Assembly (NCBI GenBank): GCA_963709215.1
Contig: CAVPVO010000004.1
Location: 220,101 to 284,100, forward strand
Length of the DNA: 64,000 nt
Source of the DNA: Terriglobia bacterium
Lineage (GTDB): Bacteria > Acidobacteriota > Terriglobia > Bryobacterales > Bryobacteraceae
Direction of reading: 5' to 3'
Shown piece after piece: positions 18,878 through 41,464 of the stretch. Position numbers and translations under genes: made by a program. A model generated the notes under the pieces. That model was not told the DNA's origin. It did not search any database and saw only the letters and a list, made by a program, of their open reading frames with translations. The first letter of the stretch is position 1. Every line of letters starts with the position of its first letter.

Positions 18878-19500
18878 GCGGCCGAGCGGCGCTGGATGGC
18901 GCGGTTGAGCTTGCGGCGCGCGTTGACGACATACGCTTTGGCGCCGCTGGGGTTCGTCAGCGCGAGATCGCGGGTGATGGTGGCAAGCGGGACTTCGTAG
19001 CCATAGTGGAGCGCCATGACGCGCGCTTCGGTGGCGTCGAGAGTATTTCCGATCACGCGCCACATTTCCTCGTGGCGCTGGCGGCGCTCGAGGGCGATGT
19101 CGGCCGGAAGGGAGGACGAGTCGCGGAGACGCAGGGGCACCGTTTCGCCGATGTCGACGGGATCGGCAATGCGGGAAACCGAACTCAGGCAATGATTGCG
19201 CGTGATGGCGTAGAGCCAGGTGGAGAATCGCGAATCTCCGCGGAAACCGCTGCGGTGACGATATGCGCGAAAGAAAACCTCCTGGGCGAGATCGAGGGCC
19301 CGGCAGCGGTTGCGCGTGAAACGCAGGCACCAGGAGGTCACGCGCGCGTGATAGCGCCGGAAAAGCTCGTTGAACATCAGCTCGCCGAGATCTGCGTTTG
19401 GATCGCAAAGTACACACATGACTTCTTCATCCGTGAGAGCTTCCGGACAGTCCTGCGCCATACGAAAAAGCTGCGGACGAAGGGCCGCTTGGGTTGACAT
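18874..19500 (-). CDS. ECF-type RNA polymerase sigma-70 family factor
   Basis: Region 2: LFRRYHARVTSWCLRFTRNRCRALDLAQEVFFRAYRHRSGFRGDSRFSTWLYAITRNHC. Region 4: EARVMALHYGYEVPLATITRDLAL..AKAYVVNARRKL. Confidence 0.85.
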   Translation of the reverse strand: MSTQAALRPQLFRMAQDCPEALTDEEVMCVLCDPNADLGELMFNELFRRYHARVTSWCLRFTRNRCRALDLAQEVFFRAYRHRSGFRGDSRFSTWLYAITRNHCLSSVSRIADPVDIGETVPLRLRDSSSLPADIALERRQRHEEMWRVIGNTLDATEARVMALHYGYEVPLATITRDLALTNPSGAKAYVVNARRKLNRAIQRRSAA

Positions 19501-19507
19501 GCCCGAA

Positions 19508-20668
19508 TCATAGGGGCCGGACGCTGCGGGTGTCGTGATGGGTTTGTAAACACGTTGTAAATTCAGTCTCGGCGGGGCCGGCGACCACCGGGCGTCCGGC
19601 GAGTTTGTTCAGCGCGACGGCGAAATTCCGGGTGAAAGCTGCTTCGGAGAAGTCGCTGACGCCGGTTCGGAGATAGAGCGGGTTGAACCAGGATTCCGTG
19701 CGGTCAAATGTGCGAAGCGCTCCCGCGAGGCTGGCCTCGGTGGCTTCGTCGTAGAGCACGCCACAGCGTTCACGAACGATTTCAAGCGACCCGCCCCGGG
19801 CCAGCGCGAGGACCGGTTTACCGCTGGCGAGCGACTCGACTGTAGTGATGCCGAAGTCCTCTTCGCCGGGCACGATAACCGCCGCGGAGCGGGCGTAGAG
19901 GCCGCGAAGTTCCGCGTCGGAAACGCGGCCGCAGAATTCGATGTTGGGTGCGGCGAGGCGTCTGAGATTGGCGTATTCGGGACCGTCACCGACGATTTTC
20001 AGGCGGCGTCCCTGCCGCGCGAAGGTGCGGACGGCGTAGTCGAGCTGCTTGTACGCGACGAGTTCCGCGACTATCAGGAAGTAGCCTTCCGAGGGTTCGT
20101 GATAGAAGGAATCGACGGCGACCGGAGGATGGATGACCTCAGCCCGGCGGCGGTAAGTGCGCCAGATACGGCGGCGAACATTCCAGCTGTTGGCGACGAA
20201 GCGGTCGACGCGCGCGGCCGAGGCGTAGTCCCAGGTGCGCAGGTAGGTCGAAAGAGAAGCCAGCGCTGCGCGCTTTATCGCGTTGCGGGAGAAGTCGTGC
20301 AGGTAGGCCGGATAAAGCTCCCACAGATAACGCATCGGCGTGTGGCAATAGCAGAGATGGCGGCATGCTGAGGGAACGAGAACACCTTTCGCAGGGCCCG
20401 ATTCACTGCTGATGACGAGATCGTAAGAGCGGAGGTCGAACGATTCCAGCGCGAGCGGCATCACAGGCAGAAGGCCGCGATGAAATCGTTTCAGCGGATT
20501 CAGGAATGAGGCTGTGACTTTGCGCGAGCGGATCAGAGGGGACACGCGGGCGGGATCGTAAAAGAGGGTGAAGATGTCGGCTTCGGGAAGCATCCGCAGG
20601 ATTGCCTCCAGGACTTTTTCGCCGCCACGTGAGCCCAGCAGCCAGTAGTGGATTACCGCAATCCGCAT
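19508..20668 (-). CDS. glycosyltransferase family 4
   Basis: MRIAVIHYWLLGSRGGEKVLEAIL.., LKIVGDGPE.., VPGEEDFGITTVESLASGKPVLALARGGSLEIV. Confidence 0.85.
   Translation of the reverse strand: MRIAVIHYWLLGSRGGEKVLEAILRMLPEADIFTLFYDPARVSPLIRSRKVTASFLNPLKRFHRGLLPVMPLALESFDLRSYDLVISSESGPAKGVLVPSACRHLCYCHTPMRYLWELYPAYLHDFSRNAIKRAALASLSTYLRTWDYASAARVDRFVANSWNVRRRIWRTYRRRAEVIHPPVAVDSFYHEPSEGYFLIVAELVAYKQLDYAVRTFARQGRRLKIVGDGPEYANLRRLAAPNIEFCGRVSDAELRGLYARSAAVIVPGEEDFGITTVESLASGKPVLALARGGSLEIVRERCGVLYDEATEASLAGALRTFDRTESWFNPLYLRTGVSDFSEAAFTRNFAVALNKLAGRPVVAGPAETEFTTCLQTHHDTRSVRPL
19544..19564 (+). promoter_or_regulatory. TTGTAAA-N4-TTGTAAATTC direct-repeat motif, 44-64 nt upstream of the ECF sigma start (inside the 3' end of the GT4 gene)
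   Basis: TTTGTAAACACGTTGTAAATTCA matches 36478-36500 (GTTGTAAAAGTGTTGTAAATTCG) at 18 of 21 core positions with identical 11-bp phasing. Confidence 0.4.
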
Positions 20669-20715
20669 TGCAACGTAGGACCGATTGGGTGACGCGCGGA
20701 GAACAGCTTTGCGCG

Positions 20716-21438
20716 TTACCAGGCGTCGCGACCGCTGAAAATGTCGCGAATAGAGCAGAGCAAAATGTGGAGGCGAAGGGCCGACGAACCACGGCGAACG
20801 AGGAACTGGTCGAGCCGTTTCCTGCGGGCGTAGCTCAGCCGGCTTCGACCGCGAACCTGCCAGAGCCCTGTCAGTCCGGGGCGCACCGAGAGGACTTCTT
20901 TGGTGGCGGCCCCGTAGAATTCGTCGAGTTCCGAAGCCGTGATTGGCCGCGGACCGATGAACGACATCTCGCCGCGAACCACGTGGATGAGTTGTGGAAG
21001 CTCGTCGAGCGAATGACGGCGGCAGAAGCGCGCAAATCGGCTGGTGATGCGAGGATCATGCGGTGTTTTGACCGGTTGTGCTTCGACGTCGGCGCCCCAC
21101 ATGGTGCGGAATTTGAGCATGAGCAAGGGCCGGCCGAGCCATCCGACTCGGGCGTGGCGAATCAAAGGAGGGCGGCGGGAGACCAGCAGGATGGTGACCG
21201 CGATGGCGAGGATCAGCGGTGACGCCAACACAAGCAGGACGGCGGCGATTGACCTTTCGCAGGTTAGGGTCACAGTACGGGCGCGAGCTGACAGATTGGA
21301 CGCCAACCCCGGCCGGGCGGGAACAAAATTGTTCCGGGGCTTTACCATGTGCTGTCCAAATGGCTGAGCGACACGGATGTCGAAGTCCCAAAGAAAAGTT
21401 GTTTTCTTCTTCCCGGCGTTTTCCAGTACAGAAGCCAC
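20716..21438 (-). CDS. polyprenyl-phosphate sugar phosphotransferase (bacterial sugar transferase family, short one-TM form)
   Basis: AAVLLVLASPLILAIAVTILLVSRRPPLIRHARVG..LKFRTM..DELPQLIHVVRGEMSFIGPRP..RPGLTGLWQV. An alternative start is Met31 at 21348. Confidence 0.85.
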   Translation of the reverse strand: MASVLENAGKKKTTFLWDFDIRVAQPFGQHMVKPRNNFVPARPGLASNLSARARTVTLTCERSIAAVLLVLASPLILAIAVTILLVSRRPPLIRHARVGWLGRPLLMLKFRTMWGADVEAQPVKTPHDPRITSRFARFCRRHSLDELPQLIHVVRGEMSFIGPRPITASELDEFYGAATKEVLSVRPGLTGLWQVRGRSRLSYARRKRLDQFLVRRGSSALRLHILLCSIRDIFSGRDAW

Positions 21439-22885
21439 GGCGCCACTGGGAATTCTGGCGGTTTCAACGCCGCTGCTGAGGGCCGGGTATCAGGTGCGAA
21501 TCATCGATTCGACCATTACGCCGAACTTCCAGAAACGAACGCTGGAGGAACTGGACGATGCGCTGTGTCTGGCGATTTCGCTGGTCACGGGACCGATGAT
21601 TCACGAGACGGTACAGATCGCGCGCGCGGCGAAGAGGCGCTATCCGGATAAGCCGGTGATTCTCGGCGGCTGGCATCCGTCTCTGCTGCCGGATCAGACG
21701 TTGGCGGCCGAGTGCGTAGACGTCGTGGTTAAGGGACAGGGCGAGGAAGCGCTGCTCGAAATCGTGGAGCGCATCGCGGCTGGAGAGTCGATGAAGGGCA
21801 TCGCAGGCGTCGGCTACAAGGAAGACGGCAGGATCGTGTTCAACATGCCGCGCGCGTTGAAGCCGATTCGCGAGTTGCCCCCTAAGGCTTATCATCTGGC
21901 CGATTTCGACGAGTACGAGCGCGTTTGCGGGCGGCGCTGGGCGATGTACACGTCGAGTCTGGCCTGTCCGTATAACTGCGCGTACTGCACGAATGACGGA
22001 GTCTACGGGCGCAAGTGGAATGCGCTCGAGCCGGCGCAAGTGGTCGAGGAGACCAGCGATCTGGTGGAGCGGTACGGCCTGTCGCTGCTGTGGATCGTCG
22101 ACGACAATTTCCTGGTCGATAAGGAGCGGGCGCTGGGGATCGCCGAGGGACTGGTGCGGCGCGGTGTGAAGTTCGACTGGAGCGTGCAGTCGTCGACGAA
22201 TCTGGTGTCGCGTTTTTCGGTGGATGAGCTCAAGCTGCTGCGGCGCGCGGGGCTGTCGCAGGTGTCGCAGGGAGCGGACAGCGGTTCGCCCAAAGTGATG
22301 CACCTGATGAACAAGGATTTTCAGAAGATCGAAACGATCTACACGGCGGCGGACAAGCTGTCGCGGGCGGGAATTCGTCCGTCGTTCAACATGATCTTCG
22401 GCTTTCCGGGCGAAGGCGAGAGCGAGCGGAAGGAATCCATCGCACTCATCATGGATGTCTGCCGGCGGTTTCCGGGCGCGGAGTTCTGGACGAATATCTT
22501 CACGCCGTACCCGGGTTCACCGATCATGCAGCGTGCGTTTGAGCTCGGGATTCACGTGCCGAAGACCCTCGAAGGCTGGACCGATTTCTTCCCGCGCTAC
22601 ACAACGCTGCCATGGCTGAAGGGTCGCAAGCACCGCGAGGTGCAGACTATGCGCGAATATCTGCGCATCGCGTTTCATCGCGTGCCCATCGGGATGCAAA
22701 AGAAGAACAGGCTGCAGAGGATTATGCACGGGATGATCGGCGTGCCGGCGCGATGGCGGCTGGATCACGGATTCTACTGGCTGCCGTTTGAACTGTGGCT
22801 CAAAGAAATGATGAACCGGCTGATGCAGCCGCCCAAACCGAAAGTGGACGCACATCAACTGGAAGCGGAAGCTGTGACGTGTTGA
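21377..22885 (+). CDS. B12-binding-domain radical SAM protein 1 (paralog of 26389..27855)
   Basis: N-terminal Rossmann-like KVVFFFPAF..PLGILAVSTPLLRAGYQVRIID..VVVKGQGEEALLEIV. Radical SAM cluster motif CPYNCAYC. C-terminal ..LPWLKGRK. Confidence 0.85.
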   Translation: MSKSQRKVVFFFPAFSSTEATAPLGILAVSTPLLRAGYQVRIIDSTITPNFQKRTLEELDDALCLAISLVTGPMIHETVQIARAAKRRYPDKPVILGGWHPSLLPDQTLAAECVDVVVKGQGEEALLEIVERIAAGESMKGIAGVGYKEDGRIVFNMPRALKPIRELPPKAYHLADFDEYERVCGRRWAMYTSSLACPYNCAYCTNDGVYGRKWNALEPAQVVEETSDLVERYGLSLLWIVDDNFLVDKERALGIAEGLVRRGVKFDWSVQSSTNLVSRFSVDELKLLRRAGLSQVSQGADSGSPKVMHLMNKDFQKIETIYTAADKLSRAGIRPSFNMIFGFPGEGESERKESIALIMDVCRRFPGAEFWTNIFTPYPGSPIMQRAFELGIHVPKTLEGWTDFFPRYTTLPWLKGRKHREVQTMREYLRIAFHRVPIGMQKKNRLQRIMHGMIGVPARWRLDHGFYWLPFELWLKEMMNRLMQPPKPKVDAHQLEAEAVTC

Positions 22886-24246
22886 GACCGGAAGTACTCC
22901 TGACGCACAGCAACAATCTGTTTTCGGACCGAAAGCAGATGGAGAAGATGCAGCCATATCCGCCGCTGCAGACGATACTCGCGGCGGCGGTGCTGCGGGA
23001 AAGCGGGATCGGCGCGGCCTTGTTCGATCCGACGCTGGAAGCGCCCGGGCCTGCGCTGCTGGAGGCGTTCGAGGCGAGTCTCGAGGCGCATAACCCGCGC
23101 CTGGTCGTGGTTTGCGAAGACAGCTTCAACTTCCTCTCCAAAATGTGCCTGGTGCGGAACCGGGAATTGGCGTTCGAGATGGCCACGATCGCGCAGAGGC
23201 GCGGGATTCCGATCGCCGCACATGGACCAGATGCGACGGACCGCGCGGGTGAGTATCTGCGGGCCGGATTCTTTGCGGTGCTGATCGGCGAAGTGGAATC
23301 GACACTGCAGGAGCTGGCGCGGCGCGAGTGCGTCGACGAATTTCGCGGCTTGTTGGCCAAAACGGCGCGCGCGGGAAACGCCGAGCTGGATGCGCTTCCG
23401 CTGCCTGCCTGGGATCTCGTGGATGTGGAGCGCTACCGGCGCGCGTGGATTGAGGCGCACGGGTATTTTTCGCTCAACATGGCAACCAGCCGGGGATGTC
23501 CCTACCGATGCAACTGGTGCGCGAAGCCGGTGTTCGGGCAGCAATATCATTGCCGCTCGCCGCGGGCGGTGGCCGCAGAGATGCTGCATTTGAAAACTGC
23601 ATACGCGCCGGACCAGATCTGGTTTGCGGACGATATCTTCGCGCTTTCTCCGAAGTGGACAGGCGAATTTGCGGAGGCTGTCGCTGAGCTGCGGGGCGAG
23701 ATTCCTTTCCGAATGCAGTCGCGATGCGATCTGATGACCCGGCCGACCGTGGCTGCACTGAAACGCGCCGGTTGCGCGGAAGTGTGGATGGGCTGCGAAT
23801 CGGGCTCGCAGAAAATTCTCGACGCCATGGACAAGGGTATTCGCGTGGAACAGATCTACGCCGCGCGGGAGAATCTGCGGCGTCACGGAATTCGCGCGTG
23901 CTTTTTCCTGCAGTTCGGTTATCCGGGCGAAGGATGGAGCGAGATCCAGGCGACCCTGCGGATGGTGCGGGAGACGAAACCGGACGATATCGGGATTTCG
24001 GTTTCATATCCGCTGCCGGGTACGGTATTTCACCGCAACGTTTTTCGCGGCATCGGACCACGCGCTAACTGGTCGGACAGTGCCGACCTGGCGATGATTT
24101 TTGCGGGGCCTTATCCGAGCGAGTTTTACCGGGCGCTGGCCGATGCGCTGCATCTCGAGGTGCGTGAAGGCAGGTACTCAGAGGCCGCCTGGGAGCGCGT
24201 GTACAGGCTGGAACGCAGTGCGAGCCGGGCCGAGGCGGTCGCGTGA
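22879..24246 (+). CDS. B12-binding-domain radical SAM protein 2 (paralog of 24243..25592)
   Basis: GTG 22879 overlaps the previous stop. LLTHSNNLFSDRKQMEKMQPYPPLQTILAAAVLRESG. SRGCPYRCNWCAKP. FFLQFGYPGEG. Confidence 0.85.
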   Translation: MLRPEVLLTHSNNLFSDRKQMEKMQPYPPLQTILAAAVLRESGIGAALFDPTLEAPGPALLEAFEASLEAHNPRLVVVCEDSFNFLSKMCLVRNRELAFEMATIAQRRGIPIAAHGPDATDRAGEYLRAGFFAVLIGEVESTLQELARRECVDEFRGLLAKTARAGNAELDALPLPAWDLVDVERYRRAWIEAHGYFSLNMATSRGCPYRCNWCAKPVFGQQYHCRSPRAVAAEMLHLKTAYAPDQIWFADDIFALSPKWTGEFAEAVAELRGEIPFRMQSRCDLMTRPTVAALKRAGCAEVWMGCESGSQKILDAMDKGIRVEQIYAARENLRRHGIRACFFLQFGYPGEGWSEIQATLRMVRETKPDDIGISVSYPLPGTVFHRNVFRGIGPRANWSDSADLAMIFAGPYPSEFYRALADALHLEVREGRYSEAAWERVYRLERSASRAEAVA

Positions 24247-25592
24247 TGAAGCTGCTGCTCACACACGCCTACTTCCTGTATGAAGACGCCAAAGAGATGG
24301 CGATCATGAAGCCCTATGCACCACTGGGGATTCTCTACCTCTCGTCGTACCTGCGCGCTAAGGGATTCGATGTCGAAATCTACGATTCCACGTTCGGCTC
24401 GCGTGAGGAGTTGCTCGGGATCCTGAATGACGGACCTCCGGCGGTGCTGGGCATCTACGCGAATCTGATGACGCGCGCGAACGCGGTGGCGATTATCGGC
24501 GCGGCACGGTGCGCGGGATGGCGCGTCATCGTGGGCGGGCCGGAGCCGTCGAATTACGCCGCAGAGTATCTCGATGCGGGCGCGGACGTTGTGGTGCGCG
24601 GCGAAGGGGAGACGGCGGTTGAGCAATTGATGGCGAGCGGATTCGACCGATGTGCCTGGCCGCGCATCGACGGGATCGTTTTTCGCGGTGACAGCGGACG
24701 GACCATTGAAACGGGCGCGGCGCGGCATCTGCCGGACCTCGATCGACAGCCGTGGCCGGACCGCGACCGGATCGATATTCCGCGCTACATGCAGGTGTGG
24801 CGGGACAATCACGGAAGGTCGTCGATCTCGCTGATTACAGCGCGAGGGTGCCCGTACAAATGCAACTGGTGCAGCCATTCTGTTTACGGCCACACGCACC
24901 GGAGGCGATCGGCGAAGGCGGTGGCGGAGGAGGTCGAATGGCTGCTGCGGCGCTACGCACCGGACATGTTGTGGGTTGCCGACGATGTGTTTACGATCCA
25001 TCACGGCTGGCTGTTCGAATACGCGGCGGAGTTGAAGCGGCGCGACATTCGCATTCCTTTCGAATGCATCACGCGCGCCGATCGAGTCAATGAGGGTGTG
25101 GCGGCAACGCTGCGCGACCTCGGATGCATGCGGGTGTGGATCGGATCAGAGAGCGGATCGCAGCGTGTCCTCGACGCGATGCAGCGCGGTGTAACTGTCG
25201 AGCAGGTGCAGCGCGCGGTCGGGCTCGCGAAAGCGAACGGAATCGAAACCGGCATGTTTCTGATGTGGGGCTACGACGGTGAAGAGGTCTCCGACATTGA
25301 AGCCACGGTCGAGCACGTAAGGAAGTGCCGGCCGGATATTTTTCTGACGACGGTGTCATATCCGATCAAGGGGACGCCGTACTTCGAAAAGGTTGCGTCG
25401 CGCCTGGTGAATATCGGCCCGTGGGCAGATACCACCGACCGCGGGTTTCAGATTCGGGGACGGCATTCGCGGCGGTTTTACAAATTCGCGGATGAGTTAC
25501 TGCGAAGCGAGATGGCCGCGGTGCCCGACGCCGCAGCCGCACTCGCGGCGCGAAATGGCCTGCGTGAGGCGTTCGCGGAGACGGAGGCGTGA
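24243..25592 (+). CDS. B12-binding-domain radical SAM protein 3
   Basis: ATGA overlap with the previous gene. LLLTHAYFLYEDAKEMAIMKPYAPLGILYLSSYLRAKG. VVVRGEGETAVEQL. ARGCPYKCNWCSHS. Confidence 0.85.
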   Translation: MMKLLLTHAYFLYEDAKEMAIMKPYAPLGILYLSSYLRAKGFDVEIYDSTFGSREELLGILNDGPPAVLGIYANLMTRANAVAIIGAARCAGWRVIVGGPEPSNYAAEYLDAGADVVVRGEGETAVEQLMASGFDRCAWPRIDGIVFRGDSGRTIETGAARHLPDLDRQPWPDRDRIDIPRYMQVWRDNHGRSSISLITARGCPYKCNWCSHSVYGHTHRRRSAKAVAEEVEWLLRRYAPDMLWVADDVFTIHHGWLFEYAAELKRRDIRIPFECITRADRVNEGVAATLRDLGCMRVWIGSESGSQRVLDAMQRGVTVEQVQRAVGLAKANGIETGMFLMWGYDGEEVSDIEATVEHVRKCRPDIFLTTVSYPIKGTPYFEKVASRLVNIGPWADTTDRGFQIRGRHSRRFYKFADELLRSEMAAVPDAAAALAARNGLREAFAETEA

Positions 25593-26392
25593 TCGATGTG
25601 AATCGCGAAATGCGACTGCAGTTCCTGCGCGACTACGCGAAGATCCGTCAGGCGGAAGGACGCGGTTCGGACGACCCGGCCTGGTATTGCGCACTTCCTT
25701 ATCGCGATCTGACCGGCAGGAACTCCGCGCAGTGGAAGATTCGCGCGCGGACATGGAAGCATTTCGAACACTCCGTGCTTCGCGGGATGGAGTTGGGAAC
25801 GACGCGGTCGCTCGAAATACTGGATATCGGCGCGGGAAACGGATGGATGTCTTACAGGCTGGCGCTGCGGGAGCATCAGCCGGTTGCAGTCGACATCTTC
25901 GCGGATGGCAGCGACGGATTACGCTGTGCGCGGCATTATCCGCGGCGATTTCCGTGCGTCGAAGCCGAGTTCGACCGGCTGCCGTTTCGCGACGCTACAT
26001 TCGACCTGGCGATCTTCAATTCGTCCATTCACTATTCGACCGATTACCGGCGCACGCTGACGGAAGCACGGCGATGCCTGCGACGTTCGGGCCGCATTGT
26101 GATCATGGATTCGCCGATTTACAGACGCGCCGCGCACGGAGAACAGATGCGAGCCGAACGGCACGAGCTGTTCGAGAGAGCGTATGGGTTTCGGTCGGAT
26201 GCCGTGCCGAGCATCGAATACTTCGACGAGGCAACGCTCGAGTCACTGGCCAGAGAGCTGAAGATCGAGTGGCAACTCAGCCAACCGTGGTACGGCATCT
26301 GGTGGGCACTCCGTCCATGGAAGGCCCGATTGCGCGGGCGGCGTCCGCCATCACGATTCTGCATTCTGGTCGGGAGTTTCGGCGCACCGTGA
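25589..26392 (+). CDS. class I SAM-dependent methyltransferase
   Basis: GTGA overlap with the previous gene. Motif I ILDIGAGNGWMSYRLA, then FDLAIFNSSIHY and LRRSGRIVIMDSPIY. Confidence 0.8.
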   Translation: MIDVNREMRLQFLRDYAKIRQAEGRGSDDPAWYCALPYRDLTGRNSAQWKIRARTWKHFEHSVLRGMELGTTRSLEILDIGAGNGWMSYRLALREHQPVAVDIFADGSDGLRCARHYPRRFPCVEAEFDRLPFRDATFDLAIFNSSIHYSTDYRRTLTEARRCLRRSGRIVIMDSPIYRRAAHGEQMRAERHELFERAYGFRSDAVPSIEYFDEATLESLARELKIEWQLSQPWYGIWWALRPWKARLRGRRPPSRFCILVGSFGAP

Positions 26393-27855
26393 TTATTCTG
26401 CTGCATCCGCGCGCTACGCGGCCGAAGAACCGGCGGTTTCCGCTGGCAATTCTCTCGATCGCCGCTGTGCTTGAGGGCAAGGAAGACTACGTCATTGTGG
26501 ACGGCAATCTCGATCCGCAGCCGATGCAAACGATCACGCGGATTATGGCTGCCAGCGAAGTCGAAATGCTGGCGGTTTCCGTCATGCCTGGGCCGCAGAT
26601 GGTGGCGGCGATTGAGCTGTCGAAGGAATTCCGGCGCCGGTGGAAGTCAGTTCCGATTGTGTGGGGCGGCTACTTCCCTTCGCTCTACACCGATGCCACG
26701 CTGAATGCCGAGTACGTCGATTTTGCGGTGAAGGGGCAGGGCGAGGAGACGTTTCCGGAATTGGTCTCTGCGCTGCGCGGGGATCGGAAATTCGCCGGTG
26801 TGCGGGGACTGTCGTTCAAAGATGCGTTCGGGCTGCACGTGCACAATGCGCTGCGTCCGCTGCGTTCGCCGGGCGATTTTCCGGAGCTGCCTTATCACAA
26901 ACTGCAGTCGGTGGAGAAGTATCTGCTGCCGACGTTTCTGGGTAAGCGGACGGCGGTGCATCACGCGAGCATAGGGTGTCCGTTCCGGTGCCAGTTCTGC
27001 GGCGTCGTGCCGATTTACGACGGGCGGCAGAAGACGGAACCGGCAGAGCGTACGGCGCGGGTGCTGGGGAGGCTGCAGCGCGAATACGGCATCGATGCGG
27101 TGCAGTTTTACGACAACAATTTTTTCCTGAGCGAGAGCCACGCCGTGGATCAGGCCGAGCGTCTGATGCCGCTGAAACTGCGCTGGTGGGCGGAAGGGCG
27201 CATCGACGCGATGCTGCGGTATTCGGATGAAACGATGCGCGCGATTCGCGATGCCGGTGCCACCATGATTTTCTTCGGCGCGGAGTCGGGCTCGGACGCG
27301 ACGCTCGCCGAAATGAACAAGAAGATCACGACGGAACAGACGCTCGAGCTGGCAGCACGCATTTCGAAGTTCGACATCATTCCGGAGTTTTCGTTCGTCA
27401 TCGGAAATCCAGGCGATCCGGGACGCGATACGAACGAGACGATCCGGTTCATCCGGAAGATCAAGCGGCTCAATCCGGCGGCTGAGATCATCGTGCAGCA
27501 CTACATTCCGACGCCGCATCCGGACGGCATGTACGGCAGCGTGGACGAAGCGATCCGGTTTCCGGATACACCGGACGAATGGGCCAGTGAACGCTGGTTC
27601 AACTTCACGATTCGGCAGGACCCGCGCCTGCCGTGGCTGCCGCGTCGTGTGAAGCGGCGTATCGATCACTTCGAGCTGGTAATCAATTCGCGCTGGCCGA
27701 CGGTGCAGGACATCCATCTGCCGCGATGGAGCCGCGTGCTGCTGCAGTCGCTGAGCAGCTGGCGGTACGCGCTTGGAATTTACGCCGCGCCGTTCGAACT
27801 GGAGTGGGCACAGAAACTGGTGGCTTTGCGAAAGCCGCGATGGGAGAGCCTCTGA
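26389..27855 (+). CDS. B12-binding-domain radical SAM protein 4
   Basis: GTG 26389 (GTGA overlap) is in frame with the long ORF 25492..27855, whose upstream part overlaps two other genes. IILLHPRA..PLAILSIAAVLEG..AVKGQGEETFPELV. SIGCPFRCQFCGV. ..RLPWLPRR. Confidence 0.8.
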   Translation: MIILLHPRATRPKNRRFPLAILSIAAVLEGKEDYVIVDGNLDPQPMQTITRIMAASEVEMLAVSVMPGPQMVAAIELSKEFRRRWKSVPIVWGGYFPSLYTDATLNAEYVDFAVKGQGEETFPELVSALRGDRKFAGVRGLSFKDAFGLHVHNALRPLRSPGDFPELPYHKLQSVEKYLLPTFLGKRTAVHHASIGCPFRCQFCGVVPIYDGRQKTEPAERTARVLGRLQREYGIDAVQFYDNNFFLSESHAVDQAERLMPLKLRWWAEGRIDAMLRYSDETMRAIRDAGATMIFFGAESGSDATLAEMNKKITTEQTLELAARISKFDIIPEFSFVIGNPGDPGRDTNETIRFIRKIKRLNPAAEIIVQHYIPTPHPDGMYGSVDEAIRFPDTPDEWASERWFNFTIRQDPRLPWLPRRVKRRIDHFELVINSRWPTVQDIHLPRWSRVLLQSLSSWRYALGIYAAPFELEWAQKLVALRKPRWESL

Positions 27856-28520
27856 CTGCTGCGGGCGAGGGATTCCGTCTATGGGCGACAAGCTACGATG
27901 CCACACCGAACGCGCTTCTTGCGCTCGAAATGCGCATTCTGTCTGAGCGGATCAGTCTGGCGCCGGGAACGAGTTTCCTCGACGCCGGAAGCGGTACGGG
28001 GCGATGGATGACGTGGGCGCAGTCGCGAGGCGCAAGGGTTTTTGGCATTGACTCGTGCCGCGAGATGCTCGTTCAGGCGGAACACAAACCAGGACTGCGG
28101 GGACGGTCAGTGCTCGCCGACATCAGTGCCATTCCCATGGCTGACGGCGCAGTCGATTTCGCGATGTGCTCTCTCACGATCGGATACGTGGCGTCGCCCG
28201 CGATTGTATTTCGGGAAATGGCACGCGTGTCGAGACGCGTCATCGTGAGCGATCTGCATCCCGACGCGGTCCGGGCCGGCTGGACGCGGTCGTTTCGCAG
28301 CGGCGATCGGCGCATTGAGCTTCAACATTTCGACCATTCGATCGCCAGCCTTGACAGGCACGCGCAGGCAGCGGGGCTGGAACGCGAATGGCGCACCGAA
28401 GTTTCGTTCGGCGAACCGGAACGCGAAATATTTGCTCGCGCCGGTAAGGAAAAAGCCTTCGAAGAGAGCCGCGGGATACACGTGGTGTCGATCACCTCAT
28501 GGCGGAAATCGTCCGACTGA
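27840..28520 (+). CDS. class I SAM-dependent methyltransferase
   Basis: MGEPL.. starts 16 nt before the previous stop. Motif I FLDAGSGTGRWMTWA, then GIDSCREML and VDFAMCSLTIGY. Confidence 0.8.
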   Translation: MGEPLTAAGEGFRLWATSYDATPNALLALEMRILSERISLAPGTSFLDAGSGTGRWMTWAQSRGARVFGIDSCREMLVQAEHKPGLRGRSVLADISAIPMADGAVDFAMCSLTIGYVASPAIVFREMARVSRRVIVSDLHPDAVRAGWTRSFRSGDRRIELQHFDHSIASLDRHAQAAGLEREWRTEVSFGEPEREIFARAGKEKAFEESRGIHVVSITSWRKSSD

Positions 28521-29680
28521 CCGGGGCGCGCGTCGCGCGGGATGCGAATCGCGGCGAACGTATCGATCTCACGATCGAAGACAGCCGCATTTTGCCGTTC
28601 GATTCCCGCATCAGTCCGCACGTCGAGCTCGATCTCACCGGATGCCTGCTGCTTCCAGGTCTTATCAACGCGCACGACCACCTGGAGTTTAACCTTTTCC
28701 CCCGGCTCGGTAATGGACCTTATGCAAACGCGTCGGAATGGGCGAGGGATATTTATCATCCGGACGCGTCGCCGATTCGGGAGCATCTGCTGGTGCCGAA
28801 ACCGATACGGCTGATCTGGGGCGGGATCAAGAACCTGCTCAGCGGCGTGACGACGGTCGCGCACCACAATCCTTATGCGCGGCGCGTTTTCACGGAGCGC
28901 TTTCCTGTGAAGGTACTCAGGCGTTATGGGTGGGCGCATTCGCTCGATTTCAGCCCCGATATCTGCGATTTGTGGGAGCGCACGCCGGAACACTGGCCGT
29001 TTTTCATCCACGCGGCCGAGGGAACGGATGAGCACGCGCGCGTGGAAATTTCCCGACTCGCGGAGATGGGCATGCTCTCGCCGCGCACACTCCTGGTGCA
29101 TGCGGTGGCGATGGGCGCGCCGGAAGTGGAAACGGTTTCCCGGAATGGATGCGGCATCGTGTGGTGCCCAACGTCGAATCTGTTCTCGCTCGGGCGGACC
29201 TTGTGTCCGGACGTTCTTCGGTCGGACATCCCGGTAGCGCTGGGCACTGATTCCGGACTGACGGCGCAGGGCGACATGATCGACGAAATCCAGGGCGCGA
29301 TGGCAACCTCCGGGTTAAACGCGGAAGAGATTTACCCGATGGTCACGACGCAGCCCGCCGGACTGCTGCGGTTGGGCGGGGGCCAGGGACGAATCTGCGA
29401 AGGCGGTGCGGCCGATCTGGTGGCGGTGGCGGATACCGGGCAGACACCTGCGCAAGCCGTGGCCAATCTGAAGCCGGAACTGGTGATGGCGCGCGGGCGC
29501 GTCATGCTGTTGTCAGCCCGTTTTGCCCGCATGCAAACCGGCTGGAAGAGTTTTCACGCGATCCACGTGGAAGGACGCGGAAGCTTTATGATCCGGGCGG
29601 ACGTCCCGAGGTTTTTCGGCGCCGCGTCGACGGCTCTCGGCTCGGAAATAAGACTGGCCGGGAGGCGCGTGTGCATCTGA
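28499..29680 (+). CDS. amidohydrolase superfamily protein (metal-dependent hydrolase/deaminase fold)
   Basis: LLLPGLINAHDHLEF (HxH motif), ..FFIHAAEG.., LLVHAV.., VALGTDSG... Overlaps the previous gene by 22 nt. Confidence 0.75.
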   Translation: MAEIVRLTGARVARDANRGERIDLTIEDSRILPFDSRISPHVELDLTGCLLLPGLINAHDHLEFNLFPRLGNGPYANASEWARDIYHPDASPIREHLLVPKPIRLIWGGIKNLLSGVTTVAHHNPYARRVFTERFPVKVLRRYGWAHSLDFSPDICDLWERTPEHWPFFIHAAEGTDEHARVEISRLAEMGMLSPRTLLVHAVAMGAPEVETVSRNGCGIVWCPTSNLFSLGRTLCPDVLRSDIPVALGTDSGLTAQGDMIDEIQGAMATSGLNAEEIYPMVTTQPAGLLRLGGGQGRICEGGAADLVAVADTGQTPAQAVANLKPELVMARGRVMLLSARFARMQTGWKSFHAIHVEGRGSFMIRADVPRFFGAASTALGSEIRLAGRRVCI

Positions 29681-30654
29681 ATCCGGTGCTCAAGCGCCTG
29701 CCGATTCTCATTCTGAGCCCGCACAGCCGGTGCAACTGCCGCTGCGTGATGTGCGACATCTGGAAGCATCCGGACACGGATGAAATCAGTGCGCAGGATC
29801 TGGAGCGCCACATCATCAGTCTGGAAGGCATGGGCGTCGAGTGGGTTGTGTTTTCGGGCGGTGAGCCGCTCATGCATTCCGATCTTTTCCGGCTTTGCGC
29901 GCTGCTGCGGAAACGGAAGATTCGCGTCACGATTCTCAGCACCGGGCTGCTTCTGGAGAGACACGCCCCGTCGATCGTGGAGAATACCGATGACGTGATC
30001 GTCTCGCTCGACGGCCCGCGCGATGTCCATGACTGGATCCGGCGTGTGGCAGGTGCATTCGACAGGCTCGCGGCGGGAGTGCGTTCGATACACGCGCGGC
30101 GAGCGGGGTTTCCGGTTCATGCGCGCTGCACCGTGCAGCGGCTGAATCACAACCAACTGCGGGCGACGGTTGCGGTAGCGCGGAGGATCGGCCTGCACGG
30201 GATCTCATTTCTGGCGGCAGACCTGACGTCAACCGCATTCAACCGGCTGGCCGTATGGGACGCTGACCGGCAGATGCAGGTGGCGCTCGACCGGGAACAG
30301 ACGGTCGCTCTCGAATCGGAAATCGAAGCGCTCGCGCTCGAAGGCGACTGTGGAGAGTTCGTGGCGGAATCGCCGGAAAAGCTGGGGAGAATCGTGCGGC
30401 ACTTCCGCGTCCATCTCGGGGAGATTGCGCCTGCGGCGCCGCGGTGCAACGCGCCGTGGGTTTCCGTGGCGGTGGAAGCCGACGGAACGGTGAGGCCGTG
30501 TTTCTTTCATGCGCCGATCGGAAAGATCGATGCCGGAACGACGCTTGGCGACGTAATCAATGGCGCCGAGGCTATCCGATTCCGGAACAGCCTCGAGGTT
30601 GCGTTGAATCCTGTTTGTCAGCGCTGTGTGTGCTCGCTGAACTGGCGCGGCTAA
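29671..30654 (+). CDS. radical SAM protein with C-terminal SPASM/twitch-like Cys cluster
   Basis: GTG 29671 overlaps the previous stop by 10 nt. LSPHSRCNCRCVMCDIW (CxxxCxxC), VVFSGGEPLMH. C-terminal CNAPWVSVAVEADGTVRPCFFH...NPVCQRCVCS. Confidence 0.8.
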   Translation: MHLNPVLKRLPILILSPHSRCNCRCVMCDIWKHPDTDEISAQDLERHIISLEGMGVEWVVFSGGEPLMHSDLFRLCALLRKRKIRVTILSTGLLLERHAPSIVENTDDVIVSLDGPRDVHDWIRRVAGAFDRLAAGVRSIHARRAGFPVHARCTVQRLNHNQLRATVAVARRIGLHGISFLAADLTSTAFNRLAVWDADRQMQVALDREQTVALESEIEALALEGDCGEFVAESPEKLGRIVRHFRVHLGEIAPAAPRCNAPWVSVAVEADGTVRPCFFHAPIGKIDAGTTLGDVINGAEAIRFRNSLEVALNPVCQRCVCSLNWRG

Positions 30655-30661: not shown

Positions 30662-30681
30662 CAGTGACCGCGCGGTCACTG
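30662..30681. terminator. perfect 20-nt palindromic hairpin between convergent genes
   Basis: CAGTGACC-GCGC-GGTCACTG. It lies 8 nt after the plus-strand stop (30652-30654) and overlaps the minus-strand stop (30676-30678). There is no U-tract. Confidence 0.55.
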
Positions 30682-31542
30682 AAGCGAGATCACAACGCCC
30701 GTTGGAGTCTGCATACCACCGACCATAGCGAGCAGCGGCACATCGCCCGTACCCAGCCCCGATGGAATCGTCAGGTTGAACTGGTAAAGTCCCGCACCTG
30801 TCAGGCCGGCGAACGCGGGCGTAATCCCCGTGCCGTTGACTAAGATCGTCACCGGATTGGACGGCAGAATCGGCGCTGCGCTCGAGAACGGCTGACCGGC
30901 AGGGACCGGCGGATTAGTAGGGCCGAACCCGACACCGAAGAGTTCCACGACATCCCCGGCCTTTGCAGGTACGGTCACATAGCCGAGGGGCGAACCCTGC
31001 GGCCCGATGATGTCGTAGCTGCCACCGCCCTGCGTGCCGGAACCGTCTGTCCGGATGATGATGCCGGCCACATGCGAGCTGTCGAGGAGGCTGAACGACG
31101 GGCCGAACTGGCCAAGCGTGACTGTCGAGGTAGCCGTACCGGTCGGCGTATGGACGACCACGGGCACGGTGCCGGTGGCGGTGTCGCTGGGAGCCTGCAC
31201 GTTGACCTGCCCGGGACTGACGAACCACAGGAATGCGGATTTGCCGTTGATGGTGACGCTCGTGCCGCCGAGGTTCTCGGGGAAATTGCCTGTCCAGGTA
31301 GCGTCCTGTGTTGCAAGATTCTGGCCGTAGATGGAAATCCACGAGCCGGGCTGAATGGTAGTGCTGGAGCTGTAGACCGGGACGACGCCGCCCTGACTGA
31401 TAGACACTGTGGTGGTGTCCGAAGCGGCGAGCTTCGATGCGAACGCGCCGGAAAAGACAGACCTCAGCGCTGCCGGCGGGGTGGATGGCGGCGGTGTCAC
31501 CTGACCCATCGCGATGCCCGCTACGAGGGGCAGAAGAAGCAT
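30676..31542 (-). CDS. secreted Ig-like protein with TIGR03437 (Soli_cterm)-like C-terminal domain
   Basis: Signal MLLLPLVAGIAMGQ (ATG 31542). ..PGSWISIYGQNL..TSVTINGKSAFLWFVSPGQVNVQAP..TPAFAGLTGAGLYQFNLTIPSGLGTGDVPL. The upstream part of ORF 30676..31758 was rejected. Confidence 0.7.
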   Translation of the reverse strand: MLLLPLVAGIAMGQVTPPPSTPPAALRSVFSGAFASKLAASDTTTVSISQGGVVPVYSSSTTIQPGSWISIYGQNLATQDATWTGNFPENLGGTSVTINGKSAFLWFVSPGQVNVQAPSDTATGTVPVVVHTPTGTATSTVTLGQFGPSFSLLDSSHVAGIIIRTDGSGTQGGGSYDIIGPQGSPLGYVTVPAKAGDVVELFGVGFGPTNPPVPAGQPFSSAAPILPSNPVTILVNGTGITPAFAGLTGAGLYQFNLTIPSGLGTGDVPLLAMVGGMQTPTGVVISLQ

Positions 31543-31645
31543 CTGCAGAGCTGATTGAAGGTTGTGTCTCACTCTGATTTCGAGGTTATGCGCGTTGCGG
31601 GGCGCAGTTGTTCGCGAAGGGTAAATTTCCTGTAAATCGGTTGGG

Positions 31646-33466
31646 TCAGCGGGGTGGTTCACGCCCGGTGAGTTCTGACAACGTGCGGGAGACGTCGGCG
31701 TCTTTGCCTGCATCGAGATCGAAGGCGTGCGAGGCCTCGGCACGGGCGGCGGCAGCACGGCCGGTCAGGGCCAGAAAGTTCGCCAGCGCCCAGTGGGGCC
31801 GGAACCAGTTCGGCGCCTGCGTGGCGGCGGTGCGAAGGGATGTTTCCACTTTGGCGGCATCGTTCTGTTCGGCGGCGAACATCGCCAGGTTGTACCAAGC
31901 GTTGGGGGGATTGTCCGAAGTTTCAGTTGCGCGTGCGGCGGCCTGCAGTGAAACCTGTACGCAGGCAGCCCGGATCGCAGGGTTCGTCCCCGCGCCGCAC
32001 AGGGTTGCGAGGCGTCTGGAACAGTACAGATCTTCGCCCGCGCCTGCGATCGCGGCGCGGCTGGCGGAGTTGTACAGGGCGATCGCACGCGGCAGATCGG
32101 CGGGTGAGCTTTGAAACCGCGCCAGTTCGACGTCGGCATGCGTCAGGGAGAGAGCGAAGTATCCGAGGCAGAGGGCGATGGGTGCGGAAACAGCCAGCGC
32201 AGAGGAATGCCTGACGGCGGGCCGGTGCGCGTCTTCGCGTGTGGATGCAACAAGGATGGCGATAACCAGCAGCGTTGCGAGGACCGGCCCCGCCATGGCT
32301 GCGACGAACAGGGATTCGACAGAGGAGGCGATCAGGGCGGCGGTGAGTGCGGACACCGGGACTGAGCGCGCGCGGCGCACGCTGATAGCCCCCAAGCCAA
32401 CCCAGCCGAGAGCAAGGAGAAGGCCAGGAATGCCTTCGCTGGTCAGGGCGTCGAGAGCGACGTTGTGGGGCGACTCGTGGTAGAAGTCGGGGAACAGACG
32501 AGCGAGTTCGGCGGACTGGAAGCGCGGGAACTCGGCGCTGAAGGTCTCGGGACCGAAACCGGTGAAGGGTCTAGCCATTGCCATGCGCAGCGAATCGCGC
32601 CAAAGAAGCGGACGCGCACCGCCGGTAGGTTCGTTGCCCGACCAGCGAACGCGGGCGCGTAACCGCGTTCCGGCCGGCGAGAACAGGAACGCAACGAAGA
32701 GAGCACCGCAGATCAGCGCGGTGAGGACGTGCCGCCGCCGCGGTTTCCATCCTGATTGAAACGCAATTGCAGCGAATCCGACAACGACTGCGAGCATGGC
32801 GGCGCGCGTGCCGCTGAGAACGATCGCGATGATCGACAGCAGGCAGGCCGTGAGGGCTGTCCGGCGCCACCATTCACGTTCGATCTGTGCCGACGCAATC
32901 GCAATGAAGACGGCAATCGCGAGCCACCAGCCGAAGTAATCCGCGTGGCCGAGCGGGCCCGGCGGACGAACGATGGTCGAATTGCCGGCCTGCGCGTGAT
33001 AGCCCGCGGGATTCTGCAGAGGGTCGATGTCGAAGTATTGGATAATGCCGTACAGCGACGCGATGCTGGCCGCAATCGCAAAGGCGCGCAGGATGGTTCG
33101 TAATGCGGCGGGTTCGCGGGACAGATGACCTGCGGCGACGACAACAAATACGCTGAGAGCGGCCACCGTCACCAGACCCATGCGGCGCCAGTTGCTTCCG
33201 AACAACGAAAACCAGGGACGCGACGATGCAGCCGTCGCGACGCCGTACCAAAGGGTCTGGACGGTGGCCAGGCAGCAAAGCCATCGGCCGGTCCGGCGAG
33301 TCCATAGCGCGGCGATGCCATCGGCGATCTGTTTCGGAAGCAGCAGACAGACCACCACGCCAAGGCAGAGAACAACGATCTTCGGCGTGATGTCGTAGTG
33401 AAACAGTACGCCCGGGAGAATCAGCAGCGGCAGAAGCAGGACGATGGCGGGCAGCAGAATCGCCAT
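31646..33466 (-). CDS. O-antigen ligase-like (Wzy_C) polytopic membrane protein with C-terminal TPR-like region
   Basis: About 12 hydrophobic helices. IVLSGTRAAMLAVVVG, PFTGFGPETF, HESPHNVALDALTSEGIPGLLLAL. C-terminal NAWYNLAMFAAEQNDAAKVETSLRTA..ANFLALTGR. The start lies 4 nt after the barrel gene stop. Confidence 0.7.
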   Translation of the reverse strand: MAILLPAIVLLLPLLILPGVLFHYDITPKIVVLCLGVVVCLLLPKQIADGIAALWTRRTGRWLCCLATVQTLWYGVATAASSRPWFSLFGSNWRRMGLVTVAALSVFVVVAAGHLSREPAALRTILRAFAIAASIASLYGIIQYFDIDPLQNPAGYHAQAGNSTIVRPPGPLGHADYFGWWLAIAVFIAIASAQIEREWWRRTALTACLLSIIAIVLSGTRAAMLAVVVGFAAIAFQSGWKPRRRHVLTALICGALFVAFLFSPAGTRLRARVRWSGNEPTGGARPLLWRDSLRMAMARPFTGFGPETFSAEFPRFQSAELARLFPDFYHESPHNVALDALTSEGIPGLLLALGWVGLGAISVRRARSVPVSALTAALIASSVESLFVAAMAGPVLATLLVIAILVASTREDAHRPAVRHSSALAVSAPIALCLGYFALSLTHADVELARFQSSPADLPRAIALYNSASRAAIAGAGEDLYCSRRLATLCGAGTNPAIRAACVQVSLQAAARATETSDNPPNAWYNLAMFAAEQNDAAKVETSLRTAATQAPNWFRPHWALANFLALTGRAAAARAEASHAFDLDAGKDADVSRTLSELTGREPPR

Positions 33467-37237: not shown

Positions 37238-37248
37238 AGACGGCGTCC

Positions 37249-39672: not shown

Positions 39673-39673
39673 C

Positions 39674-41410: not shown

Positions 41411-41464
41411 TGTGGGCGGATTTTGATCAGCCTCGGTCCGTCCGTGGTTAAAATGTTTCCAGCC

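Follow-up and report, generated by a model that had tools for sequence, protein, structure and literature searches.

Class B (B12-domain) radical S-adenosylmethionine (SAM) enzymes that C-methylate sugars are known from several biosynthetic pathways and include MoeK5 (moenomycin), GenK and GenD1 (gentamicin) and Fms7. Such enzymes act on unactivated sugar carbons, in the case of moenomycin on a lipid-linked sugar, and occur one or two to a pathway that yields a secreted antibiotic. Their names are listed in a review (PMC12931638). Carbohydrate rings are also the substrates of the radical SAM 1,2-diol dehydratase AprD4 (apramycin) and of BlsE (blasticidin S). Several radical SAM enzymes, class B methylases among them, work on membrane-embedded hopanoids (HpnH, HpnJ, HpnP, HpnR), and multiple class B methyltransferases per cluster are found in the C-methylation of RiPPs (ribosomally synthesised peptides that are modified after translation). 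Here we analysed a 64,000-nt stretch, hereafter the window, from a Terriglobia bacterium of the Bryobacterales (family Bryobacteraceae; assembly GCA_963709215.1, contig CAVPVO010000004.1, positions 220,101 to 284,100, forward strand), in which eight plus-strand open reading frames (ORFs), termed G1 to G8, follow each other with overlapping stops and starts from position 21377 to 30654. A preliminary description of this DNA had seen in these genes a dedicated multi-step tailoring pathway for a glycan, a lipid or a peptide, and this is supported by their co-conservation, their coupling and the lack of a fit to any named pathway. With somewhat less than even confidence, we propose a single translationally coupled operon whose soluble cytoplasmic enzymes would tailor a glycan or glycoconjugate on a polyprenyl-phosphate carrier built by the surrounding Wzx/Wzy-type genes. 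Substrate and product are what we infer here, the glycan assignment from the gene neighbourhood, and this part of the proposal is offered just as tentatively.

The eight-gene cassette and its conservation

All eight ORFs are present where the preliminary description had placed them. They encode the class B radical SAM protein G1 (21377-22885, 502 aa, motif CPYNCAYC), the radical SAM protein G2 with a degenerate B12-like N-terminal domain (22879-24246, 455 aa, CPYRCNWC), the class B radical SAM protein G3 (24243-25592, 449 aa, CPYKCNWC), the class I SAM methyltransferase G4 (25589-26392, 267 aa), the class B radical SAM protein G5 (26389-27855, 488 aa, CPFRCQFC), a second class I SAM methyltransferase, G6 (27840-28520, 226 aa), the metal amidohydrolase G7 of the cog0402 type, i.e., the deaminase/chlorohydrolase branch (28499-29680, 393 aa), and the radical SAM protein G8 with a SPASM/twitch-like C-terminal Cys cluster (29671-30654, 327 aa, CNCRCVMC). 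The five CxxxCxxC motifs read exactly as quoted before. ORF listing and translation gave junction overlaps of, in order, 7 nt, GTGA, GTGA, GTGA, 16 nt, 22 nt and 10 nt, in agreement with the earlier reading except for the second junction, which is GTGA and not ATGA, a trivial error. The start codons of G2, G5 and G6 are backed by orthologue lengths, that of G2 also by the homology of its N-terminus to G3; a gene caller had set the G2 start 60 nt further downstream on an identical contig. None of the eight proteins contains a hydrophobic stretch of membrane-span length, and all are hence predicted to be soluble.

G5, which is highly conserved (G1 slightly more so), served as the family marker for locus searches. 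More than 6500 proteins are homologous to it at E <= 1e-20; the top 120 of these are 74-99% identical and nearly all exactly 488 aa long. A scan of one genome per species revealed a G5 relative in at least 484 species genomes. With conservation in hundreds of genomes, the cassette is far more than a chance arrangement. Close-relative loci were analysed in the 80 best-matching species genomes, in which G5 is 69-89% identical; all are Bryobacterales or Terriglobia assemblies, together with the isolate 'Acidobacteriaceae bacterium KBS 96'. Presence was counted by tblastn of the eight proteins in the 54 loci that had room for the whole block. G1, G5, G6 and G8 were found in every one of these, G2, G3 and G7 in 51 and G4 in 49, and the gene order was colinear in 54/54. 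Mean identity was 78% for G1 and 73% for G5 and fell to 45% for G6, the least conserved protein. Median junction gaps in the relatives were -3 (G2/G3), -4 (G4/G5), -10, -22 and -10 nt. The block is thus co-conserved and not scattered, with colinear order and overlap lengths kept, as its first description as one cassette would have it. Nor does it look like a lineage-specific fusion of operons with internal promoters, since a consensus scan for promoter- or terminator-like sites within G1-G8 gave no signal above shuffled sequences. The cassette is one of the best-conserved accessory operons of the Bryobacterales and related Acidobacteriota, which rank with the most abundant bacteria in soil, and thousands of metagenome homologues exist.

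Most relatives carry two additional genes. A second G1-like paralogue (G1'), about 40% identical to G1, occurs in 39/54 loci, and a third methyltransferase of about 248 aa is inserted between G3 and G4 in most, where the median G3-G4 gap amounts to 741 nt. The eight genes of the window are therefore a shortened form of an ancestral cassette of ten genes. Three of the 54 loci are devoid of G2-G4 altogether. In two further variants (loci L002 and L017, 4325-5005), a 226-aa radical SAM fragment with 82% identity to part of G1 precedes the full-length G1 and appears to be a partial tandem duplication.

Clustering at 50% puts all Bryobacterales G5 proteins together. The full-length relatives closest to them share 37-44% identity and score 330-410 bits to G5 versus 140-180 bits to G1; named sources of these distant G5 proteins are Anaerolineae, Thermomicrobiales/Nitrolancea, other Chloroflexota, KSB1 and Planctomycetota. 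A metagenome scan yielded 80 further loci. A large second clade from soil and peat, with G5 58-62% identical, shows either colinear or split order, and in the split form one arm (G1', G2, G3, methyltransferase, G4, G8) and another (G1, G5, G6) diverge from a common intergenic region. In several Chloroflexota loci, and in L085 and L086, we found a protein of about 310 aa followed by G2 (49%), G3 (51%), a methyltransferase, another that is fused or enlarged, G5 (45%) and G8 (48%). The KSB1 version consists of G2, G3, two methyltransferases, a G1-like gene, two more methyltransferases and G5, and Chloroflexota as well as KSB1 loci contain G2 orthologues with 49% identity. One Anaerolineae locus holds G8, a small ORF, G6, the protein of about 310 aa and G5. 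Distant loci also contain a G5-G6-G7 triad and keep the G5-G6 adjacency; G7 is missing from many distant versions. Orthologous pieces in distant loci and the second-clade forms thus reveal that the cassette is modular, with a module A of G5 + G6 (+G7) + G8 (+G1) and a module B of G2 + G3 + methyltransferase(s). The cassette is either ancient or has moved between phyla.

Two features of the distant versions were recorded in addition. The protein of about 310 aa in the Chloroflexota and KSB1 loci (L083 9011-9991, L085 3582-4481, L169 5014-5943, L170 3502-4446) has no Pfam match and bears a GALA…DDDIDLF motif reminiscent of Pol-beta-type nucleotidyltransferases; as a distant member of the NTP_transf_5 family it was rejected (hhalign probability 0.1%). 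In two Chloroflexota loci (L169 8316-10007, L170 8296-10017), two class I methyltransferase domains are fused in one protein of 563-573 aa, encoded directly upstream of G5 and overlapping it.

The preliminary description had matched the cassette to no named pathway, and our searches came to the same result. None of the eight proteins reached the curated cut-off of any NCBIfam model, pathway-specific ones included. Best scores versus cut-offs were 140/481 for BchE, 103/578 for HpnJ, 96/650 for HpnR, 109/360 for rSAM_ladder_B12, 102/600 for PhpK, 102/750 for ApyD, 79/500 for AprD4 (G2, 78.7), 66/400 for BlsE and 60/225 for HpnH. A literature search that combined B12 radical SAM enzymes with Acidobacteria, exopolysaccharide, polysaccharide or Solibacter found no description of the cassette.

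Properties of the eight enzymes

G1, G2, G3 and G5 all contain a Radical_SAM domain (PF04055, 54-75 bits), and the Cys triplet of their CxxxCxxC motif is invariant among 66-129 orthologues. They form the two paralogue pairs noticed earlier, G1/G5 with 29% identity over 477 aa and G2/G3 with 34% over 436 aa. Of the four B12-domain radical SAM proteins initially counted, G1 (B12-binding 59.3 bits, Radical_SAM 74.7 bits), G3 (B12-binding 61.7 bits) and G5 (B12-binding 56.1 bits) hold up, but in G2 (Radical_SAM 67.6 bits) the B12-binding domain (PF02310) scores 23.3 bits and stays under the gathering score of 32.1. Cobalamin binding has no diagnostic sequence motif, and AprD4 is an example of such a fold without cobalamin. 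Sequence matches of G1 and G3 in the PDB were QCMT, AprD4, TokK and TsrM, and for G3 the best two, QCMT (9ccb, 2.7e-15) and AprD4 (6fd2, 4.1e-15), were virtually tied. An AlphaFold model was computed for G5 alone among the class B-type proteins (predicted local distance difference test score, pLDDT, 89.9); its top Foldseek matches were MgmA/QCMT (9ccb), OxsB, AprD4, TsrM, CysS and TokK (E 1e-20 to 1e-15), and it features additional C-terminal helices that are cationic and amphipathic. Similarity to any solved class B enzyme is just 13-20%. The C-terminal Cys of G1, C502, is conserved in 95% of 66 orthologues. At the last codon of G1 (22883-22885), the protein tail ...EAVTC recalls the CUAEP/CCAEP-tail radical SAM proteins, which G1 matches weakly.

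G8 combines a Radical_SAM domain (68 bits) with a SPASM match (PF13186, 36.7 bits versus a cut-off of 21.5). Of 61 orthologues, 98-100% retain C21, C25, C28, C259, C277, C316, C319 and C321. The SPASM/twitch assignment made at first sight is therefore sound as far as the domain goes, but G8 is no full SPASM protein: the seven-Cys motif for two auxiliary [4Fe-4S] clusters is reduced to five conserved C-terminal Cys. As these suffice for one auxiliary cluster, G8 is better described as twitch-like or partial SPASM. Its best PDB sequence match was the cytosylglucuronate decarboxylase BlsE (7vob, 1.7e-15). Matches to the peptide maturases ScmE/ScmF, PapB and WgkB were weak, and G8 also matches HpnH.

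The two methyltransferases are Methyltransf_11 proteins (Pfam; G4 56.1 bits, G6 58.8 bits), and a PDB sequence search with both returned generic class I methyltransferases alone. G7 is an Amidohydro_1 protein (63.5 bits) in which H59/H61, H171-x-x-E174, H201 and D251 are invariant in 45 sequences, and we thus predict it to be a catalytically intact deaminase-type hydrolase of the cog0402 branch. The best matches of a G7 orthologue profile were 5'-substituted adenosine-type deaminases (4dyk, 4gbd, 3lnp and 4f0r, 1e-20 to 1e-16), followed by 8-oxoguanine, atrazine and guanine enzymes (1e-14 to 1e-11); the aminofutalosine deaminases 2imr and 7lkj are also among its relatives. The alignment to 5'-substituted adenosine deaminases comprises the N-terminal strand and the C-terminal half and leaves the central region unaligned. 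In the G7 model (pLDDT 93.6), the top folds were all (beta/alpha)8 barrels of cog0402 type (3lnp, 3hpa, AtzA, Vcz and 4f0r; template modelling (TM) score 0.65-0.74), and a substrate could not be read from it, as Foldseek did not separate adenosine-type deaminases from triazine, guanine and isocytosine enzymes. Because G7 shares an operon with seven SAM-consuming enzymes, removal of 5'-deoxyadenosine and S-adenosylhomocysteine (SAH) would be an attractive role. DadD is described as removing such by-products for radical SAM enzymes. A role within the pathway, e.g., deamination of an adenosyl adduct as by aminofutalosine deaminase after MqnE, would be equally possible.

Gene neighbourhoods and the candidate substrates

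In the 54 Bryobacterales loci, a Bac_transf homologue is encoded at most 10 kb from the cassette in 22, a glycosyltransferase of family 4 (GT4) is near in 18, and Wzy_C proteins and extracytoplasmic function (ECF) sigma factors are near in nine each. The Bac_transf gene adopts at least three arrangements, upstream and divergent, downstream of G8, or co-directional, with its proximity kept; the genes flanking G1 and G8 vary between loci. Locus L002 combines Bac_transf, GT4 and MurJ, and outside the Bryobacterales we found PMT_2, GT2 and Wzy_C (L083), GT4, GT87, GT4, Wzx and DUF4012 (L085/L086), two GT4 genes directly upstream in KSB1 (L087), and Wzy_C and GT4 directly downstream (L169). A Wzy_C gene flanks the Anaerolineae versions, and GT4, GT87, PMT_2-like and Wzx families are among the commonest neighbours in the second clade. 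In locus L113, a cassette methyltransferase, an uncharacterised protein, two GT4 proteins and a GT-C protein are encoded on one strand with gaps of -4, 18, -4 and -25 nt, an operonic linkage of a cassette gene to glycosyltransferases. A seed-based phmmer count, which gives lower bounds, places a glycan gene no more than 10 kb away in 29/61, 12/20 and 4/4 of the long loci in the three tiers. As glycosyltransferases are common, the weight lies mainly with the rarer families (priming transferase and Wzy_C) and with the coupled arrangements. Seen across three phyla, this context speaks for a glycan or glycoconjugate as the substrate rather than for a peptide or lipid.

A second recurrent association concerns a putative kinase and a nucleotidyltransferase. 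NTP_transf_5 is near the cassette in 17/54 Bryobacterales loci and follows G6 in many second-clade loci. An HprK-like family of about 330 aa (cluster c6) adjoins the cassette in 11/20 long second-clade loci, and one or both families are present in 12/20, often directly after G6. In L094, L095, L107, L124, L129 and others, the two genes stand after G6 where the window has G7 and G8. They are adjacent or overlapping in the window, L094 and L129, in the last by 4 nt. The Hpr_kinase_C domain scores 25.9-30.9 bits in the window and second-clade proteins versus a cut-off of 33.3, and the P-loop is intact. In the lasso peptide pseudomycoidin, a Ser is phosphorylated and hexose(s) are then attached by PsmK and PsmN (PMC6993621). 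Besides PsmK/PsmN, no other characterised relatives of the pair were found in the literature, and a search for PF14907 returned an unrelated phosphonate survey alone.

In the window itself, the cassette starts back-to-back with a priming polyprenyl-phosphate sugar-phosphate transferase (20716-21438, minus strand; Bac_transf 147.3 bits, EPS_sugtrans 178.6 bits), as first described; the gene is divergent from G1, and its true start is probably internal to this ORF. On the same strand follow a GT4 protein (19508-20668; Glycos_transf_1 and Glyco_transf_4), an ECF-type sigma factor (18874-19500; NCBIfam sigma70-ECF 61.8 bits versus a cut-off of 42.9), the HprK-like P-loop kinase (17906-18880, start approximate; Hpr_kinase_C 25.9 bits, sub-cut-off) and the NTP_transf_5 nucleotidyltransferase-like protein (16612-17913; PF14907, 126.9 bits). 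The long ORF of the HprK-like protein, which weakly matches HprK_rel_A and ScmC, extends to 19417 and overlaps the sigma factor gene. With stops and starts that overlap or abut, the minus-strand run 16612-21438 looks like a second operon diverging from the cassette, and the ECF sigma factor may co-regulate both arms. The plus strand further holds a Wzy_C (O-antigen ligase/polymerase-like) membrane protein (14221-15597; PF04932, 52.7 bits) and a second GT4 (15471-16739; Glyco_trans_1_4, 95.5 bits), which fills an apparent 1-kb gap and overlaps the convergent NTP_transf_5 gene with its 3' end by about 130 nt. A second Wzy_C protein (31646-33466, minus strand; PF04932, 79 bits) and a GT2 with a methyltransferase (7127-8984) bring the glycan genes of the window to one Bac_transf, two GT4, one GT2 and two Wzy_C. 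No flippase was identified in the window; MurJ or Wzx are present in related loci.

Downstream, G8 is convergent with the gene of a secreted TIG/Soli_cterm-domain protein (30676-31758, minus strand; TIGR03437, 169.3 bits), and this Solibacter-type C-terminal domain puts the organism in or near the Bryobacterales. Between them lies a perfect 20-nt palindrome (30662-30681) that overlaps the stop-codon end of the Soli_cterm gene (30676) and is unique in the window. The palindrome as such was correctly noted before; no T run was found at this site, and the region with its 9-bp stem folds no better than shuffled sequences (z-score -1.3). As an intrinsic terminator it was rejected on these grounds; it may mark a bidirectional transcript end. 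Further along the minus strand (33471-36394), a 683-aa protein without Pfam match is encoded beside a multihaem c-type cytochrome, and this pair adjoins the cassette in 8/54 Bryobacterales loci in either orientation. At 36557-45566, a two-component block (OmpR-type regulator, receiver protein, HAMP histidine kinase) is followed by a pyrroloquinoline quinone (PQQ)-dependent alcohol/glucose dehydrogenase (41423-43402) and a large ankyrin-repeat protein; this region appears unrelated to the cassette.

If the substrate is a glycan, an oligosaccharide on polyprenyl diphosphate would be assembled at the cytoplasmic face by the priming transferase and GT4 and would be tailored before export. With a 5'-deoxyadenosyl radical and methylcobalamin, G1, G3 and G5 (plus G1' in the loci that have it) would methylate unactivated sugar carbons or rearrange them. 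G2 and G8 could perform cobalamin-independent radical steps (dehydration, decarboxylation, epimerisation or oxidation), which we propose because their nearest solved relatives AprD4 and BlsE do so on sugars. G4, G6 and the third methyltransferase would add O- or N-methyl groups. G7 might either clear the inhibitory by-products 5'-deoxyadenosine and SAH of the seven SAM-consuming enzymes or deaminate an amidine or heteroaromatic amine of an intermediate. By analogy with PsmK/PsmN, the HprK-like/NTP_transf_5 pair could add a phospho-linked sugar. Wzx/MurJ and Wzy_C would then account for export and for polymerisation or transfer to lipid or protein. That we have here the first example of widespread tailoring by several cobalamin-dependent radical SAM enzymes that install C-methyl groups or rearranged carbons on a surface glycan or glycoconjugate, in Acidobacteria, Chloroflexota and KSB1, is a narrower claim, which we regard as possible but rather doubtful. 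If it proved true, dominant soil Acidobacteria, Chloroflexota and KSB1 would have a previously unrecognised class of heavily alkylated, B12-dependent envelope polymer. Should the cassette tailor a surface glycan, radical C-alkylation would join the known chemistry of bacterial polysaccharides, envelope structure in soil would be tied to cobalamin supply, and at least four new class B radical SAM enzymes would become available in a tractable genetic context. The culturable carrier strain KBS 96 makes the substrate question directly testable.

Several observations weigh against a glycan. About half of the Bryobacterales loci have no glycan gene within 10 kb, as far as a limited seed search can tell, and some co-occurrence with genes as common as glycosyltransferases is expected by chance. 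Neighbourhoods vary, and many loci are related by descent, so that the counts are not independent. Nucleotide-sugar modifying genes were not found in the window. The similarity to AprD4, BlsE and QCMT is superfamily-level (40-60 bits, TM 0.6-0.7) and does not identify substrates; likewise, the structural neighbours of G7, with its unaligned central region, do not discriminate adenosine-type deaminases. To our knowledge, the action of multiple B12 radical SAM enzymes on a cell-surface polysaccharide has no characterised precedent.

Among the alternatives, membrane-lipid tailoring survives best, although we consider it unlikely. Class B enzymes can methylate or cyclise unactivated alkyl carbons, and the cassette might thus act on ether or diabolic-acid lipids or introduce the C5/C6 methyl groups or rings of brGDGTs (glycerol dialkyl glycerol tetraethers of the branched type). 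No substrate gene would be needed, because the membrane itself would be the substrate, and this fits a cassette that is self-contained, without substrate gene or transporter, amid variable neighbours. It is also strongly conserved and abundant in an order that includes the brGDGT producer Solibacter usitatus (PMC10087280), and the brGDGT biosynthesis literature that we located names no methylase. Moreover, the sub-threshold NCBIfam matches include the lipid-acting class B proteins HpnJ and HpnR and a ladderane-associated family, and the cationic, amphipathic C-terminal helices of G5 would suit a membrane substrate. However, no fatty-acid, ether-lipid (PlsA/Ger/ElbD) or Tes/Mss/Grs-type gene is among the recurrent neighbours, which instead are glycan-assembly genes and in some loci show translational coupling with genes of the cassette. 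In S. usitatus, the published Grs homologue has 597 aa and is hence none of G1-G8, and it is not obvious what class I methyltransferases and a deaminase-type hydrolase would do on saturated alkyl chains. That the cassette encodes the sought methylases or cyclases of these palaeoclimate-proxy lipids is a less likely alternative to glycan tailoring; if it held, it would bear on the biosynthesis of the brGDGT palaeothermometer lipids.

Less probable still is the modification of a peptide or protein in a RiPP-like manner, with C-methylation by the class B enzymes, a crosslink or epimerisation by G8, the HprK-like/NTP_transf_5 pair phosphorylating and glycosylating a Ser as in pseudomycoidin, and the precursor encoded elsewhere. 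The SPASM match of G8 and its weak maturase matches (ScmE/ScmF, PapB, WgkB) point in this direction, as do G1-G5 with sub-threshold matches to two models of RiPP methylases, ApyD and rSAM_ocin_1. Wzy_C proteins of the PglL family act as protein O-oligosaccharyltransferases, and a secreted Soli_cterm protein adjoins the cassette. In addition, the HprK-like/NTP_transf_5 pair recurs beside the cassette, and the only characterised relatives found act on a peptide (PMC6993621). A precursor is, however, hard to place. As in the preliminary description, no precursor-like short ORF was found: clustering of 25-120-aa ORFs outside called genes in about 160 loci gave no conserved small ORF, either within the cassette or next to it, and with its junctions overlapping the block has no space for one. 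The recurrent small-ORF clusters were rejected as precursors, being out-of-frame or antisense shadows of conserved genes. The Pfam-scanned neighbours also included no PqqD or RiPP recognition element (RRE) protein, leader peptidase, lasso cyclase or ATP-binding cassette (ABC) exporter. Furthermore, G8 has five and not seven C-terminal Cys, and its best solved relative acts on a sugar nucleoside.

The last point leads to a diffusible small molecule or cofactor, for example a metabolite of nucleoside type or with many methyl groups, in which G8 and G7 would act on a nucleoside moiety, much as aminofutalosine deaminase acts after a radical SAM adenosylation, with the glycosyltransferases being coincidental or glycosylating the product. 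We deem this improbable, to a slightly greater degree than a peptide. G8 is closest to the nucleoside-sugar decarboxylase BlsE (and also matches HpnH), G7 belongs to a nucleobase/nucleoside deaminase branch with aminofutalosine deaminases among its relatives, and the two genes are translationally coupled with a conserved overlap. Yet many distant versions and 3/54 close loci lack G7, and all these similarities are superfamily-level. No scaffold enzyme, such as a polyketide synthase, nonribosomal peptide synthetase, terpene synthase or cytosylglucuronic acid (CGA) synthase, and no exporter is conserved with the cassette. In general, the scanned neighbours showed no recurrent transporter, scaffold-forming enzyme, lipid-synthesis gene or PqqD-like protein, and the initial remark that the cassette comes without a recognisable substrate gene or transporter thus extends to the related loci. 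Finally, a lineage-specific juxtaposition of unrelated operons without a common pathway is very improbable: the cassette can be split, as seen in the three loci without G2-G4, the second-clade halves on opposite strands and the subsets in distant phyla, but split halves remain adjacent and divergent, order and overlap lengths persist in at least 54 species, the two modules are found together once more in Chloroflexota and KSB1, and internal promoter or terminator signals are not above chance.

Comparison with described systems

Tailoring of a glycan, which we tentatively prefer, has its closest counterparts in MoeK5, GenK/GenD1 and Fms7. These enzymes share the B12 plus radical SAM architecture with the cassette proteins, and their genes, too, stand beside glycosyltransferases. 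In contrast to their one or two enzymes per antibiotic pathway, the cassette has four to five, along with two to three class I methyltransferases, in putative Wzx/Wzy-type loci. AprD4 and BlsE are the nearest solved enzymes for G3 (AprD4 being tied with QCMT) and G8 (BlsE), respectively, and G2 resembles AprD4 in having a B12-like domain with a poor score for the B12 model. Against the respective NCBIfam models, however, G2 and G3 reach 63-79 bits versus 500 and G8 reaches 66 versus 400, and partners such as AprD3 and BlsD are absent.

The hopanoid system, like the cassette, comprises several radical SAM proteins including class B methylases, and the hpn cluster contains no substrate gene. Here, equivalog cut-offs are missed widely, no squalene-hopene cyclase or other hpn gene is nearby, and the neighbours are glycan genes. 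Multiple class B methyltransferases per cluster are shared with RiPP C-methylation (polytheonamide PoyB/PoyC, bottromycin BotRMT1-3, ApyD), but we found no precursor, RRE, protease or exporter, and scores remain at 80-102 bits versus a cut-off of 750. Pseudomycoidin biosynthesis has the HprK-family kinase and NTP transferase families side by side, as the HprK-like and NTP_transf_5 genes are beside the cassette in the window and in the second clade. It differs in its lasso cyclase, protease and precursor genes, which are lacking here, and the HprK domain match of the pair stays below the Pfam cut-off. G7 shares the cog0402 fold and the HxH, HxxE, H and D residues with aminofutalosine deaminase and with the deaminases of 5'-deoxyadenosine, methylthioadenosine (MTA) and SAH (DadD, MtaD, TM0936, PA3170). 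In contrast to the adenosine-type deaminases, it is 40-80 residues shorter and stays at <=76 bits versus NCBIfam cut-offs of >290, and Foldseek ranks triazine, isocytosine and guanine enzymes equally.

Each enzyme's superfamily is already known, and so are radical SAM tailoring operons as a kind. The curated models and the literature searched contain no description of the combination, in which a partial-SPASM radical SAM enzyme joins four to five class B enzymes and two to four class I methyltransferases, often together with a deaminase-type hydrolase. The same applies to its full coupling, its modular build, its conservation from Acidobacteriota to Chloroflexota and KSB1, and its setting in surface-glycan loci.

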